From: Gemmatimonadota bacterium
GTDB taxonomy: Bacteria; Gemmatimonadota; Gemmatimonadetes; Longimicrobiales; Gaopeijiaceae
NCBI GenBank assembly: GCA_039589315.1
Contig: JBDHHQ010000074.1
Coordinates: 1-42,722 of the forward strand
Direction of reading: 5' to 3'
Length of the DNA: 42,722 bases
In this document: in pieces, positions 6,743-40,005 of the stretch
Layout: each line of letters starts with the position of its first letter
Position numbering within the stretch: position 1 is the first letter of the stretch
Notes under the pieces: generated by a model
Told to the model about the DNA's origin: nothing
Seen by the model: the letters and a program-made list of their open reading frames with translations, nothing else
The model's database searches: none
Made by a program: the position numbers and the translations under genes

Positions 6743-6839
6743 TAAAACGCAAGGGAGAAGTTCGCAGGATCGGATCGGCGTTGACGGCAGCGGGACCCGT
6801 CGTCACACTGCTGGCCACACGTCCACAGCGAGGAACGGA

Positions 6840-7415
6840 ATGCCCTGGATCGAGCAAGTTCCCATCTCCGAAGCCAAGGGCTTCCTGAAGAAGCAGTTCG
6901 ACGCCGCGCTCGCCAGAGCCGGTCGCGTCTGGAACGTCGTGCACATCATGAGCGTGAACCCCCGCACCCTCGAAGCGAGCATCGGCTTCTATGGGGCCAT
7001 CATGATGGGCAGATCGCCCCTCAACCGCGCCCAGCGGGAGCTGCTGGCCACGGTCGTCTCGGCCGAGGTGGATTGCCACTACTGAACGCAAGCGCACGCG
7101 CACGACCTCCGGGAAGAGGTCCAGGACATGACAGCGGGGGAGGCGGACGCGTACGTGCACGCGGTGGCGAGGGACTGGCGGACCGCACCCCTCACGGAGG
7201 TAGATCGTGCCTTGTGTGAGTTCGCCGCCAGGCTCACACACGACCAACACGCGATGAGCCCAGAGGATCTCGACGCGCTGCGCGCCCACGGACTCGACGA
7301 CCGCGCTCTCCATGACGCGGTGCAGGTGATTGCCTACTTCAACTACATCACGCGGGTCGTGGACTCACTCGGAGTCGAGCCCGAGGATTTCATTCGCCCC
7401 TGGGGCGTCGAGTAG
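6840..7415 (+). CDS. AhpD/carboxymuconolactone-decarboxylase-like peroxidase-related selenoprotein (CxxU), 191 aa with UGA read-through
   Basis: The track ORFs ending at 7085 and starting at 7128 are in the same frame and separated only by TGA 7083-7085: ...VVSAEVDCHY-U-TQAHAHDLR..., matching the AhpD CxxCxxxH motif. C-terminal half has 'DAVQVIAYFNYITRVVDSLG'. Confidence 0.85.
7104..7121 (+). promoter_or_regulatory. Putative bacterial SECIS element
   Basis: Hairpin GACCTC-(CGGGAA)-GAGGTC. The apical loop begins 24 nt after the UGA and has G at its second position. Confidence 0.65.
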
Positions 7416-9223: not shown

Positions 9224-9345
9224 TCCGTCAGTGTCGGGGTCGAGGCGGTCGATCAGCGATCCGTTGGCTGTGCCGGGCTCCCAACGCGGTGAGGCTGCCC
9301 CCGACGACCCACCTGCGACGTGCCGGGCATTCTCGACCCGACAAT

Positions 9346-9388
9346 GGAAAGGCGGCGCCCCCCGGGGAGGGGAAGCGCCGCCTCTTCC
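9346..9388. terminator. GC-rich hairpin after the DUF885 gene, possible terminator
   Basis: AGGCGGCGC (9350-9358) pairs with GCGCCGCCT (9375-9383), flanked by GGAA/TTCC. U-tail is weak. Confidence 0.4.
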
Positions 9389-9679
9389 GCGACTCGTGCC
9401 GCGGGGGCCGGTCAGGGCTCGAGGAGCCCTGCGGCTGGCCGCTTGGGCGGGAGTCGACCAACGCGTCACGGGCAATATGCAACGGGCCTTGTCGAAAAAG
9501 CCAAGCAAACATTTGACGGGAGCCGAGTCGGGCGTTCGGGCGCTGTCCTTGGGTCCGTTTCGGCTGTCGGCTCCCCTGCAGCACCCCGGCCCGGGACGTG
9601 GGCGCCGGTTGCCCCTCGTGACCCCCGGCGCAGGGCCGTGTCCGGTGAGCCGCCGGCACGCCAGGCCCGCGTGGATGAC

Positions 9680-34766: not shown

Positions 34767-36770
34767 TCACGGCCCGCCCGCGTCGCTCACCCAGGTGTTG
34801 TTGGAGCGGTCCACGTCCGGAAACCGAAACTCCGGGTCGATCTCGACCCGAACGACGCGGCCGACGTCGGCGGGGAGGGAAACGGTTACGCTGGTTTCCC
34901 CACTGAGCCACGCCTCCACGCCCACCTCCCGCTCCAGCACGCCACCGTCGGTGGTCTCCACCCGGAGCAGCACCGGCATGGGGGCAAAGCCCCGGTCCTC
35001 CACCGTGATGACCGGACCGGAGGCACCTTGCTCCACGTCGGCCACCGCCTGGTCCAGGGCCCACGTCTCGTAGTACCAGGTGTTCCAGAACCAGTCCAGG
35101 TCCTCGCCCGCCTCGCGCTCGACCGCGTTGAAGAGGTCCCAGGGACTCGGATGCTTGAATGCCCAGTCGGCGATGAAGCTCCGGTACGCTCGTTCGAAGG
35201 TCTCGTCCCCGAGCAACCCACGCAGGGTCAACAGCAGCGTGGCCGGCTTGGGGTAGGACGCGACGCCGTACTGGAAGCCGGGCCCGTACAGGTCGCCGTG
35301 CGTCATGAGCGGCTTCTCCATCTCCGTCCGGGCCGCCATGAGGTAGCTCTCCCGCTCTGACGCATGGGCGTCGGTCCCTGGCCAGTACTCGGGTCGGCCC
35401 TGGTCCTCCAAGAACGTGGTGGAGCCCTCGTCCATCCATGCGTGGCGTCGTTCGTTGGTGCCCACGATCATTGGAATCCACATGTGGGCGAGCTCATGGG
35501 AGGTGACGTTGTAGAGGGATGCGGCCTCCTGCCCCTGGTATCCGCCGATGAGCGTCAGCATCGGGAACTCCATGCCGCCGTCGATGATGTCGGAGCCCTC
35601 GACGGACGTCATGTGGGGCCACGGATATGCGAACCCCGTGTAGCGGGAGTGGTGCTCGATGGCGTGCTTGCCGAAGAGCGCCTGGCCGTCCCACAGCGGG
35701 GCGCGGTGGGCACGCCAGAAGGCATGGATGAGCACCCGGTCGTCCGCCCCGTCGCCGTCCCGGTCCGGGACGACGGCGCTGGTGGCGTCCCACGTCTGGA
35801 CGTTGGAGGCCGTCCAGGTGAAGTCCCGCACGGTGTCGGCCGCAAAGTGGTAGACAAGCCGTCCGGAAGGGGGTGCGGTCGTCACCGTGCCGGCACCCAG
35901 CTCTTCGGCCGACGCCACCCGCACGATCGTATCGGCCGAAGCCGCGGCCGCGAGCCGGTCGCGGACCTGGGGCGACAGAACCTCGTCGGCATTCAAGAGC
36001 TCACCGGTGGCCATCACCGTCCAACCGGCCGGCACGTCCAGGCTGACCCGGTAGTCGCCAAATCCGTCGTAGAACTCCGCACCGGCCATGTACGGTTCAG
36101 CGTCCCAGCCCCGGAGGTCGTCGAGGACGGCCATCTTCGGGAACCAGTACGCCAGGAAGTACACCTCCCGGTCCGAATGCCCCATCCGGCCTGCCCCGTT
36201 TTGAGGCACGACGAACGTCCAGTCCACCTCGAGCTCCAGCGTGTCGCCCGGTTCGATCTGGTCCGGCGGTCGCACGGCCATGAGGGTGCCGTCCACGGCG
36301 TATCCGGGCCCGTCCGCTAGACTCCCCGCGCTCACGGGCGACCCTGCCACGGTCACGCGTGTCAGCGTAACCCCTCCCGTCACCTCCTGGGCCTCGTTCC
36401 GCACCGCGCCGGGGGCGTGGAGGTTTTGGTAGAGGTTCACGATCACGCCGTTGAGCGTGTGGGGGGATTCGTTCTGCCACTGGATTCGTGCCTGGCCGCT
36501 GATCTGTCCGGTCTCGGGCTCCAGTCGGGCCTCGATCTGGTACCGGGTGTGGGGTTGCCAGTACGTGGGCCCCGGGCGGCCGTCGGCCGTACGCGTGCCC
36601 CGCTGAATCGCCGTGCGGTAGAACGGCGGCGGTACCACCGGTCCGGGGATCGGGCGGTCGGGGGTTACCCCGTTCTGGCCGAGGGCAGGCGTCGGTACCA
36701 ACGTGCCGACGAGGATGGTGGCCGTCACGAAGGCGGGCGCCAGCGGCGGGATGGGGGAGATTCGGCTCAC
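34767..36770 (-). CDS. M1-family zinc metallopeptidase, exported
   Basis: 'GGMEFPML', 'HELAHMW', 'WMDEG', 'YPKPA'; signal peptide. Confidence 0.93.
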   Translation of the reverse strand: MSRISPIPPLAPAFVTATILVGTLVPTPALGQNGVTPDRPIPGPVVPPPFYRTAIQRGTRTADGRPGPTYWQPHTRYQIEARLEPETGQISGQARIQWQNESPHTLNGVIVNLYQNLHAPGAVRNEAQEVTGGVTLTRVTVAGSPVSAGSLADGPGYAVDGTLMAVRPPDQIEPGDTLELEVDWTFVVPQNGAGRMGHSDREVYFLAYWFPKMAVLDDLRGWDAEPYMAGAEFYDGFGDYRVSLDVPAGWTVMATGELLNADEVLSPQVRDRLAAAASADTIVRVASAEELGAGTVTTAPPSGRLVYHFAADTVRDFTWTASNVQTWDATSAVVPDRDGDGADDRVLIHAFWRAHRAPLWDGQALFGKHAIEHHSRYTGFAYPWPHMTSVEGSDIIDGGMEFPMLTLIGGYQGQEAASLYNVTSHELAHMWIPMIVGTNERRHAWMDEGSTTFLEDQGRPEYWPGTDAHASERESYLMAARTEMEKPLMTHGDLYGPGFQYGVASYPKPATLLLTLRGLLGDETFERAYRSFIADWAFKHPSPWDLFNAVEREAGEDLDWFWNTWYYETWALDQAVADVEQGASGPVITVEDRGFAPMPVLLRVETTDGGVLEREVGVEAWLSGETSVTVSLPADVGRVVRVEIDPEFRFPDVDRSNNTWVSDAGGP

Positions 36771-37017
36771 GGTACGGGCTCTCCAGCTCGAGTCCTGAAT
36801 CCACCAGGGGTTGCCACCACCCAGTCACCCCCGGTCGGGTGTGGGCCTCCTTGGACCCGCCCTTTTCTGACAGGTTCCGGTGTGCCCGGCCCCGGGGAAC
36901 CGATCCAGCATCTACCGGGTTGGAGCCGTACAGTGTACTGTTGAAGCCAGGTGCCGGGACGACCCCGGTGTCCGACCCGTCGAAGAACGGACGCGACCTG
37001 TGGATAGCGACATCCGG

Positions 37018-37092
37018 ATGTGTAGCTGTCGGTGTTGTTGCCGGGAGGCCCGAGGGCCTTCCAGGGGTCGCGGTACGGGGTCGGGCGACTAG
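37018..37092 (+). CDS. Cys-rich attenuator leader peptide MCSCRCCCREARGPSRGRGTGSGD
   Basis: ATG TGT AGC TGT CGG TGT TGT TGC gives 5 Cys in 7 codons, directly upstream of a cysteine synthase operon. An alternative in-frame GTG start exists at 37000. Confidence 0.8.
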   Translation: MCSCRCCCREARGPSRGRGTGSGD

Positions 37093-37136
37093 CCGACATC
37101 CCGGACGCAAACGGCCGATGGCCGCGACCCCGGAGG
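37058..37136 (+). promoter_or_regulatory. Antiterminator of the Cys attenuator
   Basis: GGGGTCGCGG (37064-37073) is the exact complement of CCGCGACCCC (37122-37131, terminator left arm). Pairing extends with CTTCC 37058-37062 against GGAGG 37132-37136. Confidence 0.8.
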
Positions 37137-37161
37137 AAGAGGGGTCGCGGCCGTTTCTTTT
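37120..37161 (+). terminator. Attenuator intrinsic terminator
   Basis: 12-bp stem GGCCGCGACCCC/GGGGTCGCGGCC with a 9-nt loop, then GTTTCTTTT, ending 20 nt before the cysteine synthase ATG. Confidence 0.88.
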
Positions 37162-37181
37162 GTGGTGGTGGAGAGACCGAA

Positions 37182-38096
37182 ATGCGCGTGATCGCGAGCA
37201 AGGCTGCAGTGGACGAGGCCATCGGCAACACGCCGCTGGTGCCGCTCCGACGGGTTTCACCGAGAGGGGCGGCGCAGGTGTGGGTCAAGGTCGAGGGGTT
37301 GAACCCGGGGGGTAGCGTGAAGGACCGTCCGGCACGAGCCATCCTCCAGGCCGCCGAGGCGGCCGGGCTCATGGGAGACGGTCGTGCCCTCCTGGACGCG
37401 AGCTCGGGCAACACCGGCATTGCCTTCGCCATGCTCTGCGCGGCCCGGGGGTACGACTGCGTCATCTGCTTGCCGGACAACGCGAACGGCGAACGCAAGC
37501 GGCTCCTGGCCATGTACGGCGCGACCGTCGTGCACACGCCTCCGGAGGACGGTTCCGATGGTGCCATCGTAGAGGCTCGAAGAAGGGCCGCCCACGATCC
37601 GGACCGCTACTTCTACGCTGACCAGTACAACAACCCCAACAACGTGCGGGCCCATTACGAAACCACCGGCCCGGAGATCTGGAGGCAGACAGGAGGTCGC
37701 GTCACCCACTTCGTGGTCGGTTTGGGGACGTCCGGTACCTTGATGGGCGTGGGGCGCCGCCTCCGGGAGTTCGACCCGTGGATCCGCGTGATCGCCGTAC
37801 AGCCCGACGCGCCGTTTCACGGGATCGAAGGATGGAAGCACATGCCCACCGCAATCGTGCCGGGTATCTACGATCCGGATTTCGCGGACGAGACGCTCAC
37901 GGTGCGGACCGAAGCCGGCCAGGCAATGGCCCGACGTATCGCCAGGGAGGAGGGCCTTCTCACAGGGTCGTCGGGGGGTGCGAATGTCGTGGCGGCTCTG
38001 AGCGTCGCGAAGAAACTGCCGCCAGGAGACCTGGTCGTGACCGTGCTGCCCGATCGTGGAGAACGATACCAACACGAGCAGTGGTGGAAGGAGTGA
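37182..38096 (+). CDS. cysM: PLP-dependent cysteine synthase, CysM-like (probably sulfur-carrier dependent)
   Basis: 'IGNTPLV', PLP lysine in 'NPGGSVKDR', 'SSGNTGIA', 'GLGTSGT', 'PDRGERY'. ATG at 37182 after GGAGA. Confidence 0.9.
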   Translation: MRVIASKAAVDEAIGNTPLVPLRRVSPRGAAQVWVKVEGLNPGGSVKDRPARAILQAAEAAGLMGDGRALLDASSGNTGIAFAMLCAARGYDCVICLPDNANGERKRLLAMYGATVVHTPPEDGSDGAIVEARRRAAHDPDRYFYADQYNNPNNVRAHYETTGPEIWRQTGGRVTHFVVGLGTSGTLMGVGRRLREFDPWIRVIAVQPDAPFHGIEGWKHMPTAIVPGIYDPDFADETLTVRTEAGQAMARRIAREEGLLTGSSGGANVVAALSVAKKLPPGDLVVTVLPDRGERYQHEQWWKE

Positions 38097-38101
38097 GACC
38101 G

Positions 38102-38533
38102 ATGGTCCGGATCGAGGGTTCCGAGCTCAGGGCAATCCTGAGCGAAGCGCAGATGAGTTACCCCGAGGAGTGCTGCGGTGCCCTGCTCGGGCGTGTCGAC
38201 CGCATGGCCGGGCGCAAGGTCGTCCGGGCGGTGCCCATCTTCAACGGCCGCCAGGACGAGCGTCGACGGCGCTACCTGATCGGTCCCGACGAGGTCAGGA
38301 CCGTGGAAGGCGCCGCCGCTCGCGGAGGCCTCGACGTGCTGGGGTTCTACCACTCACACCCCGATCACCCTGCGATTCCGTCGGCCTACGACCGTGACCA
38401 CGCATGGCCCTGGTACACGTACGTGATCGTGCCCGTGAGGGGTGGGGAGCCGGGCGCGCCACGGGCGTGGCGGCTGAAGCAGGACCGCGGGGATTTCGAC
38501 GAAGTACGCCTTCTGCCCAAGGAGCGACAATGA
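38102..38533 (+). CDS. mec: JAMM/MPN+ (M67) metallopeptidase, Mec+-like
   Basis: 'YPEECCGAL' and the JAMM motif 'GFYHSHPDHPAIPSAYD'; operon context. Confidence 0.9.
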   Translation: MVRIEGSELRAILSEAQMSYPEECCGALLGRVDRMAGRKVVRAVPIFNGRQDERRRRYLIGPDEVRTVEGAAARGGLDVLGFYHSHPDHPAIPSAYDRDHAWPWYTYVIVPVRGGEPGAPRAWRLKQDRGDFDEVRLLPKERQ

Positions 38534-40005
38534 CCGTCGTCGTACGGATCCCCACGCCCCTCCGCCCGTTCGCGGGAGGCCAGGCGGAGGTCGCCGTCGG
38601 CGGTGCGACCGTGGGCGAGGCGCTGGATCACCTGGTTGCGGAGAACCCCGATCTGCGGGCGCACCTGTACACCGAGGACGGCAGCCTGCGTAACTTCGTC
38701 AATGCGTACCTGAATCAGGAAGATGTCCGGCACCTCGGTGGGGGCGCGACTCCGGTCCGGAGCGGCGACGAGATCACCATCGTGCCCAGTATCGCCGGGG
38801 GCTCGGGCGCGGCCCCCGCTGCCCTGGAGGACGCGGTGGCCAAAGCGGTCACGCTGTCACACGAAGAGATCCAACGCTACAGCCGGCACCTCATCATGCC
38901 CGAGGTGGGCATGGAGGGGCAGAAGAAGCTGAAGTCGGCCAGCGTGCTCATGATCGGCGCCGGGGGTCTGGGGTCTCCACTCGGGCTCTACCTGGCGGCG
39001 GCCGGGGTGGGGCGGATCGGCATCGTGGACTTCGACGTGGTCGACTCCACCAACCTCCAGCGCCAGCTGCTGCATGGCACGAAGGACGTGGGGCGACCGA
39101 AGCTGGATTCGGCCGCCGATCGACTCCGGGACGTCAACCCCCACGTGGAGGTCGTGCTCCACAACGTGCGGTTGACCAGCGAAAACGCCCTGGACGTGCT
39201 GGAGCCCTACGACGTCGTCGTGGACGGCACGGACAACTTCCCGACCCGCTACCTCGTCAACGACGCGTGCGTGCTTCTCGGAAAACCCAACGTTTACGGT
39301 TCGATCTTCCGCTTCGAGGGGCAGGCGTCGGTGTTCTACGCCAAGGAGGGCCCGTGCTACCGGTGTCTCTTCAAGGAGCCGCCGCCCCCGGGCCTCGTCC
39401 CGAGCTGCGCGGAGGGTGGCGTGTTGGGAGTGCTGCCGGGCATCGTGGGCTCCATCCAGGCGCTGGAGACCATCAAGCTCATCCTCGGCACGGGCGAGCC
39501 GCTGATCGGGCGCCTCCTGCTGTTCGACGCTCTGGGGCTGGAATGGCGGGAGTTGAAGCTCCGGAAGGATCCGGAGTGCCCGGCCTGCGGTGAGTCTCCG
39601 ACGGTCACTGAGCTCATCGACTACGAGGAGTTCTGCGGCGTGCCGGGCGTGGAGGACGCGAGGTCGGCGGAAGAGGACGCCGTCCCGGCGCTTTCCCCCC
39701 TCGAGCTCAGGGAACGCCTCGAGCAGGGCGACGATCTCGTGATCCTGGACGTCCGCGAGCCCCACGAGTGGGAGATCGGCAACCTTGGGTCACACGGCGC
39801 GCTCCTGCTGCCTCTCGGGGACGTCCACGACAGAATGAACGAGCTCGACACGGCGGCCGAGATCGTGCTCATGTGCAGGTCGGGGAAGCGGAGTGCCAAG
39901 GCTCTCCTTCAGCTTCAGAGCGCAGGGTTTCGGAAGCTCTGGAACCTCGATGGAGGCATTCTGGCGTGGTCGGACGACGTGGATCCCAGCGTTCCCAAGT
40001 ACTGA
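38530..40005 (+). CDS. moeB: Fusion of a MoaD/CysO-like ubiquitin-like sulfur carrier, MoeB/ThiF adenylyltransferase and rhodanese (MoeZ-like)
   Basis: Residues 1-91 'VRIPTPLR...VPSIAGG'; E1 motifs 'RYSRH', 'IGAGGLG', 'DSTNLQRQ', CYRC and CPAC; rhodanese 'LDVREPHE...CRSGKRS...LDGGILAW'. Confidence 0.93.
   Translation: MTVVVRIPTPLRPFAGGQAEVAVGGATVGEALDHLVAENPDLRAHLYTEDGSLRNFVNAYLNQEDVRHLGGGATPVRSGDEITIVPSIAGGSGAAPAALEDAVAKAVTLSHEEIQRYSRHLIMPEVGMEGQKKLKSASVLMIGAGGLGSPLGLYLAAAGVGRIGIVDFDVVDSTNLQRQLLHGTKDVGRPKLDSAADRLRDVNPHVEVVLHNVRLTSENALDVLEPYDVVVDGTDNFPTRYLVNDACVLLGKPNVYGSIFRFEGQASVFYAKEGPCYRCLFKEPPPPGLVPSCAEGGVLGVLPGIVGSIQALETIKLILGTGEPLIGRLLLFDALGLEWRELKLRKDPECPACGESPTVTELIDYEEFCGVPGVEDARSAEEDAVPALSPLELRERLEQGDDLVILDVREPHEWEIGNLGSHGALLLPLGDVHDRMNELDTAAEIVLMCRSGKRSAKALLQLQSAGFRKLWNLDGGILAWSDDVDPSVPKY

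Follow-up and report, generated by a model that had tools for sequence, protein, structure and literature searches.

Cysteine was long missing among the amino acids sensed by classical attenuation, and a study of mycobacterial leaders states that cysteine attenuators had previously been undescribed (10.1101/834739). In that study, leaderless poly-Cys sORFs of mycobacteria were shown experimentally to act by translational attenuation, and actinobacterial cys leaders have been reported without terminators (PMC1262725). Upstream of cysS in Rhodobacterales, uORFC-8-2 has been predicted as an upstream ORF with Cys codons, two stems and a U-tailed terminator, for which sensing of Cys-tRNA was proposed (PMC8632094). 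The cysteine case that has been shown is thus translational, and the terminator-based case is a prediction for cysS alone. With regard to the genes that such leaders might control, the operons that Iyer et al. (2006) classed as type 4c combine a cysteine synthase, a JAB protein, a ThiS/MoaD-like carrier and an E1-rhodanese protein (PMC1779556), and in Mycobacterium tuberculosis (Mtb) SigH, with the consensus GGAAYR-N17-18-GTT, drives mec-cysO-cysM and moeZ (PMC4803200).

Here, we compare these systems with a leader found in a 42,722-nt stretch of Gemmatimonadota DNA (the window). As judged from its sequence, this leader is highly likely to be a classical ribosome-mediated transcription attenuator that senses the supply of Cys-tRNA, and it very probably switches a cysteine operon on under cysteine shortage.

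Leader ORF, terminator and downstream operon

An earlier note on this DNA had described a 24-codon leader with Cys at codons 2, 4, 6, 7 and 8, four of them TGT, and this reading holds: the ORF (37018-37092, + strand) has 24 sense codons from its ATG and a stop at 37090, with TGT at codons 2, 4, 6 and 7 and TGC at codon 8. These five Cys codons within seven represent the putative sensor (37021-37041, + strand), which is identical in the same-genus locus L002. TGT is indeed uncommon in this GC-rich DNA, as had been noted, since it makes up 20% of the Cys codons in the long ORFs of the same genome; against this background, the probability of at least four TGT among five Cys codons is 0.007. Summed over 36 leaders, TGT was found 115 times and TGC 41 times, and a preference for the wobble-read TGT is the expectation for a sensor of tRNA supply. 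A true tRNA-Cys was not found in the assembly, which is incomplete, and a candidate with an ACA anticodon was rejected on account of its poor cloverleaf and because it was missing among the Rfam tRNA matches. About 20 tRNA genes are arrayed on another contig of this genome (C68, 16207-21882).

An alternative in-frame GTG start (37000-37002, + strand) would give a 30-codon leader in which the first Cys is codon 8. This GTG is conserved in L002, and 4-14 codons precede the first Cys in many of the relatives' leaders. The Shine-Dalgarno (SD) sequences of both candidate starts are weak (-3.2 kcal/mol for the GTG and -3.1 kcal/mol for the ATG, calculated with an assumed anti-SD motif; no 3' end of the 16S rRNA was found in the assembly), which is what would be expected if a chance ORF happened to lie beside an ordinary terminator. 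The probability of this explanation is negligible, however, as it is refuted by the conservation of the leader and also opposed by its rarity, its spacing and the covariation of its terminator. With regard to rarity, the 6.67-Mb genome contains 394 in-frame Cys runs (at least 4 Cys in 8 codons), 180 of which have a stop at most 30 codons away; a stop together with a perfect U-tailed hairpin of at least 10 bp was found for 2 of the 394, the window leader and a leader on contig C177, and such a hairpin occurred in 0 of 3000 random 190-nt windows.

The proposed 12-bp terminator with a U-tail at 37120-37161 (+ strand) was also recovered. Its stem is perfect (37120-37131/37141-37152) and encloses a 9-nt loop, a U tract with 7 U in 37154-37161 follows, and the fold of 37118-37166 reaches -31 kcal/mol (z -5.0), a value matched by none of 200 shuffles. 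A simple terminator scan returned no terminator at the leader because its loop limit was 3-8 nt. In an alignment of 12 rows, consisting of 11 cysM leaders of the phylum and the C177 leader, the terminator covaries, with 93% of positions paired and two-sided changes in 7 of 13 pairs; the covariation score, which relatedness inflates, was reached by 0 of 500 shuffles. The upstream neighbour (34767-36770, minus strand) is a divergent gene, so that the terminator can act only on transcripts begun in the leader region. Directly 3' of the Cys run, the candidate pause hairpin of the earlier note (37043-37062, + strand) was found to have an 8-bp stem and to fold at -16.2 kcal/mol, which 5 of 200 shuffles matched, and one A-U pair is replaced by G-C through a double change in L002.

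The SD of cysM (37170-37173, + strand; -6.4 kcal/mol) is located outside the terminator. In the minimum free energy (MFE) fold of 37040-37175, a weak 5-bp hairpin pairs the U tract with this SD, and the only poly-Cys leaders characterized experimentally act translationally (10.1101/834739); both observations could favor translational attenuation of the mycobacterial type, in which the leader would govern how accessible the cysM SD is, with a secondary part for the hairpin. We consider this very unlikely, as the SD is unpaired in the centroid of the same region, the U-tailed terminator is strong and covaries, and in relatives the terminator lies anywhere between 20 and about 310 nt from the gene, a variability more in keeping with transcriptional control than with control through the SD. 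SD sequestration without transcription termination, the hallmark of the mycobacterial leaders, is not what the window leader displays.

Family assignments agree with the CysM/JAMM/sulfur-carrier operon named in the earlier note. The first gene (37182-38096, + strand) encodes a cysteine synthase of the CysM/CysK family (TIGR01136, E 5e-100; TIGR01138, E 8.5e-100; Pfam PALP), with the scores for both TIGR models under the curated cut-offs. It is followed by genes for a Mec-like JAMM/Prok-JAB protease (38102-38533, + strand; PF14464, E 7.8e-25) and for a MoeZ-like protein (38530-40005, + strand), which by its profile matches is a fusion of a ThiS/MoaD-like sulfur carrier, ThiF/MoeB and rhodanese. 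Among named relatives, the best ones carry the label Gemmatimonadota, and two of these are Longimicrobiales. The family assignment of the genes, with the cysteine synthase scores below the curated cut-offs, suggests that the operon makes cysteine. The carrier domain ends in Gly-Gly at about residue 91, and the ThiS-ThiF-rhodanese fusion is kept in L002-L005 as one continuous match from the N-terminus. The Gly-Gly is internal in the fusion, and release of the carrier may depend on the JAMM protease encoded next to it.

Promoter motif and proposed switch

The motif GGAACC-N17-GTT at 36896-36921 (+ strand) represents a putative ECF/SigH-like promoter, which resembles the Mtb SigH consensus, a mycobacterial one, except at the sixth base (PMC4803200). 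Transcription would then start near 36927-36930, and the motif implies a 5' UTR of 70-90 nt; locus L005 looks leaderless. Both boxes are retained in L002, and the motif precedes all three Cys leaders of the same genome, the same-genus counterpart of one of them (the C2 leader) and 5 of 15 distinct cysM loci of the order (16 were listed, L233 repeating L038). The genome background is 0.004 per 300 nt, with odds that are post hoc because the motif was noticed after viewing these sequences, and genome-wide the motif is not enriched (132 observed, 163 expected). In three loci of the order, sigma-70-like boxes were found instead; for the window leader, a sigma-70 scan found no promoter. A short inverted repeat (36930-36941) overlaps a -10-like hexamer (36936-36941), which L002 shares and which may belong to a second promoter. 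ECF-like motifs were also seen upstream of cysK-like genes in L013 and L017, and visual inspection suggested them in L006 and L014 as well.

The nature of this motif bears on what the leader senses. There is little to recommend a leader that responds to general or stress-linked slowdown of the ribosome (by thiol oxidation or nascent Cys-peptide stalling) and not to uncharged tRNA-Cys, given that beyond Cys no peptide is conserved and that the wobble-read TGT is favored, as expected of a tRNA-supply sensor. Such a role would accord with the ECF/SigH-like motif, which points to thiol stress, with SigH driving mec-cysO-cysM and moeZ in Mtb (PMC4803200), and with the two other leaders of this genome, which precede genes without a known cysteine role.

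A strand from 37064 that duplicates the right arm of the terminator had been pointed out earlier, and it was located at 37064-37074 (+ strand), where it forms the putative antiterminator 5' strand by pairing 11 of 11 with 37121-37131 of the left arm (-23.9 kcal/mol; 4 of 200 shuffles as good), in a helix that can be extended by 37058-37062:37132-37136. The strand starts 22 nt past the last Cys codon and ends 15 nt before the stop. The antiterminated fold has an inner hairpin (37077-37102, + strand) that encloses the stop codon, which lies inside the antiterminated arm in the folds of several relatives too, and 37077-37086 represents a weaker second antiterminator strand (-19.0 kcal/mol). Upstream of the Cys codons, a putative protector strand (36992-37004, + strand) overlaps the alternative GTG start and pairs with 37060-37072, covering most of the antiterminator strand in a duplex of -23.9 kcal/mol, equal to the antiterminator helix (z -2.5; 2 of 200 shuffles as good). 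Before the terminator left arm is made, this pairing has P 1.0 in RNAs whose 5' end is at 36990 or further upstream. The protector is invariant in L002; as a family-wide feature it was rejected, since just 6 of 49 leaders pass.

Under the attenuator model, RNA polymerase would start upstream, probably near 36928, from the ECF-type promoter, and may pause after the hairpin at 37043-37062 to await a ribosome on the leader. With little charged tRNA-Cys, this ribosome would stall on the Cys codons, sitting between the protector and the antiterminator strand; the freed strand would capture the emerging left arm of the terminator, no terminator would form and cysM-JAMM-carrier/moeZ would be transcribed. 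With ample cysteine, the ribosome would pass 37064-37074 and halt at 37090 inside the antiterminated arm, where it may melt the inner hairpin and separate the antiterminator strand from the left arm by steric exclusion. The protector could re-pair behind the ribosome at the stop, the terminator would form and transcription would end near 37160.

Computed folding gave the antiterminator with P 1.0 for the RNA 3' of the stalled ribosome and the terminator, likewise with P 1.0, when the ribosome was placed at the stop. For full-length RNA, the outcome was the terminator in all cases. In masked equilibrium folds of 36928-37136, the antiterminator had P 0.61-0.99 with the ribosome stalled versus 0.42-0.81 with the ribosome at the stop; this order was reversed for some other 5' ends, and for RNA from 37000 with the ribosome masked at the stop P was 1.0. 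Thus, the switch would be complete if helices cannot close around the ribosome and leaky if they can, and, because the antiterminator strand ends before the stop, termination would need steric exclusion, the protector or kinetics. For the trp/his-type geometry of the earlier note, a stalled ribosome was indeed found to leave the antiterminator strand free, whereas the disruption of the pairing by a ribosome at the stop is not reproduced by masking; folding of the kind suggested there gave a clear switch in the RNA 3' of the ribosome and a leaky one when the ribosome was merely masked.

Conservation of the leader and related loci

Close cysM homologs are patchy: in the order sample, 8 of 301 genomes have one, and in the family 9 of 314. 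Four unpublished genomes (G025, G165, G367 and G468) enter genome tallies only, that of the order sample among them, and no conclusion depends on them. The set for the order comprised 15 distinct cysM-JAMM-moeZ loci in 14 genomes, with the window included and duplicates dropped. Locus L039, from a genome flagged as unpublished, was left out of the counts for the order and stays, with an ORF only, in the denominators of the 85- and 80-locus sets described below. A Cys-run ORF (at least 3 Cys in 8 codons) was found within 450 nt of cysM in 12 of the 15 loci, one of these ORFs having no standard start within 20 codons. Eleven of the 12 Cys-run loci have a U-tailed hairpin, and the hairpin of L121 has a poor tail. 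The remaining three loci are L235, with a terminator and a degenerate leader, L234, in which the Cys-run ORF is located about 1050 nt upstream, before a rhodanese-like ORF, and L231, where a long ORF lies immediately upstream of cysM. L232 and L235 are two operon copies in one genome (G652), one with an intact leader and the other with fewer Cys codons.

In 10 of 11 leaders of the order, the stop follows the last Cys by 16-19 codons (itself counted) and precedes the terminator by 14-27 nt, while the peptide sequences differ. The fixed Cys-to-stop spacing supports a role for the position of the stop. It also bears on the possibility that the product of the ORF is itself functional, as a Cys-rich mini-peptide binding metals or acting in redox chemistry and made from a separate short transcript, with cysM expressed through weak read-through or from another promoter. 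Motifs such as CxCxCCC can bind metals, and the stress-type ECF motif upstream could suit such a peptide. Yet the peptide sequence and the Cys spacing vary freely and the codon distance to the stop is fixed, and neither the TGT bias nor the antiterminator complement would be expected of a mini-peptide, so that we regard this as quite improbable compared with attenuation.

The earlier note had suggested that the regions upstream of orthologous operons be examined for conserved Cys runs and covarying stems. The Cys runs and the terminator answered to this, but covariation of the antiterminator within the phylum did not: in the register of the window, 65% of positions are paired in the 12-row alignment, a value as high in 426 of 500 shuffles, versus 42-55% in slid controls. 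With the register left free, 6 of 11 leaders of the order scored at 10 or fewer of 100 shuffles (median z -1.4), and L002, L003 and L037 failed.

In a larger set, which after removal of 5 duplicates and 2 paralog loci comprised 85 distinct homologous loci with the window among them, an ORF with a terminator was found in 36 and an ORF alone in 6, counts that overstate independence because the loci are related. Cys leaders were also present in records labelled Acidobacteriota and Anaerolineae and were not seen in the Planctomycetota- and Thermoflexus-labelled loci of the set. Enough upstream DNA was available for 64 of 80 metagenome loci, and of these 64, 19 have the ORF and 13 the ORF and terminator. 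By comparison, similar criteria selected 5 of 4379 upstream windows of the own genome, a list that omits the window leader and the C177 leader; the former is outside it because a called ORF reaches into the leader. Rfam (T-box, S-box and other cis-regulators) gave six matches in 36600-37400, all far under the gathering scores, and none in 12 related loci.

Between the Cys run and the terminator, 23 of 36 leaders contain a better complement of the terminator left arm than their shuffles do (median z -2.4), as do 30 of 49 leaders of a larger set; the right-arm control showed no shift (median z -0.05, 36 leaders). In 15 Anaerolineae-type leaders, the antiterminator covaries (85% paired, two-sided changes in 6 of 15 pairs, 0 of 500 shuffles), and its strand mostly spans the stop codon, which is the textbook geometry. 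A hairpin across the Cys codons has weaker covariation support in these leaders.

Two further Cys leaders are found in the same genome. The C177 leader (about 9230-9390, + strand) has four Cys codons, a U-tailed terminator and the ECF motif and precedes a DUF1684 gene. It was rejected as a conserved regulator of DUF1684 genes, as it is absent from the distant same-genus locus L236 and from 24 loci of other family genomes, 0 of whose 24 DUF1684 upstream regions have an ORF with a terminator. The C2 leader (L229, about 6760-7010, minus strand), with five Cys codons and the ECF motif, precedes a RimK-like ATP-grasp gene and is conserved in the same-genus locus L239; its stem is nearly identical to the window terminator, but its U tail is poor. 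Elsewhere, L017 has a Cys leader with a terminator-like hairpin before a paralogous cysteine synthase, and L013 has a terminator without a Cys run upstream of a cysK-like gene. Loose scans of the own genome for Trp, His, Phe, Met, Lys, Ile and Tyr leaders returned mostly noise. A candidate His leader (contig C14, + strand, about 77300-77740) has four His in eight codons and a U-tailed hairpin of -33 kcal/mol, and the ORF that follows is presumably HisG.

In another part of the phylum, 19 of 19 loci of the same operon (L128-L146) have a conserved palindromic box and no Cys run, and an Rrf2 gene lies upstream in all three of those tested. Control by an Rrf2 repressor thus appears to replace the Cys leader in another Gemmatimonadota family. 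L148 also has an Rrf2 gene and a palindrome rather than a Cys leader, and L125 and L126 share a palindrome different from that of L128-L146.

A more comprehensive interpretation, which is tentative and which we hold to be rather unlikely as a whole, would join these observations. An undescribed family of Cys-tRNA attenuators would extend over Gemmatimonadota, Acidobacteriota and Anaerolineae. A two-step gate would operate, with an ECF sigma factor of the SigH type starting transcription under thiol stress and the leader passing it only if cysteine is truly short. In this genus, the switch would have four strands, with the protector overlapping the GTG start so that initiation itself arms the antiterminator. 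The promoter-plus-leader cassette would reach a small regulon, including the ATP-grasp ligase and the DUF1684 gene, and would alternate with Rrf2 repression across the phylum.

Comparison with known systems

The gene set of the window operon is that of operon type 4c (PMC1779556) and of mec-cysO-cysM/moeZ in Mtb (PMC4803200), with the difference that in the window the carrier is fused to the E1-rhodanese protein. A SigH-type promoter, in the window a motif, is shared with the Mtb genes, while leader control is absent from the accounts of type 4c and of the Mtb pathway in the portions of these sources available to us. The leader supports a cysteine-making role of the cysM-JAMM-carrier-MoeZ operon, and its signature could help to uncover further genes linked to cysteine that annotation has missed.

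The mechanism itself is textbook, and a cysteine attenuator with a terminator is not new as a concept. The novelty claimed earlier stands in part: the combination of Cys codons and an intrinsic terminator had already been predicted before cysS (PMC8632094), but no published case was found before cysteine-synthesis operons in these phyla. A literature search covering few subscription journals gave no description of Cys attenuators before cysM-JAMM-moeZ-type operons, and the main texts of PMC4833913 and PMC2965389 contain no cysteine leader. Therefore, a family of Cys attenuators preceding cysteine-synthesis operons in these phyla appears to be undescribed; as a multi-phylum family, it extends leader-peptide attenuation to Gemmatimonadota.

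Like the mycobacterial and actinobacterial leaders, the window leader has a run of Cys codons that would sense cysteine upstream of cysteine genes, but those leaders are translational, acting through SD sequestration, or lack a terminator (10.1101/834739, PMC1262725), whereas the window has a covarying intrinsic terminator. With uORFC-8-2 it shares a Cys-codon uORF, two stems, a U-tailed terminator and the proposed sensing of Cys-tRNA (PMC8632094). However, uORFC-8-2 would control cysS in another phylum and has a tandem pair of Cys codons, usually UGC, at positions 14-15 (PMC8632094), while the leaders described here have 3-6 Cys codons, mostly UGU, and the window leader precedes a biosynthetic operon. 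In its place outside Rhodobacterales and away from cysS, and in having no tandem UGC at codons 14-15, the window leader differs from uORFC-8-2. It most closely follows the trp, his, leu, thr, ilv and phe attenuators in having an ORF with cognate codons, an antiterminator competing with an intrinsic terminator, and a biosynthetic operon downstream (10.1101/834739). It is set apart from them by its cysteine signal, by an antiterminator strand that in this order is contained in the ORF and stops 15 nt short of its stop codon, by a protector located 5' of the Cys codons over an alternative start, and by an ECF-type promoter motif.
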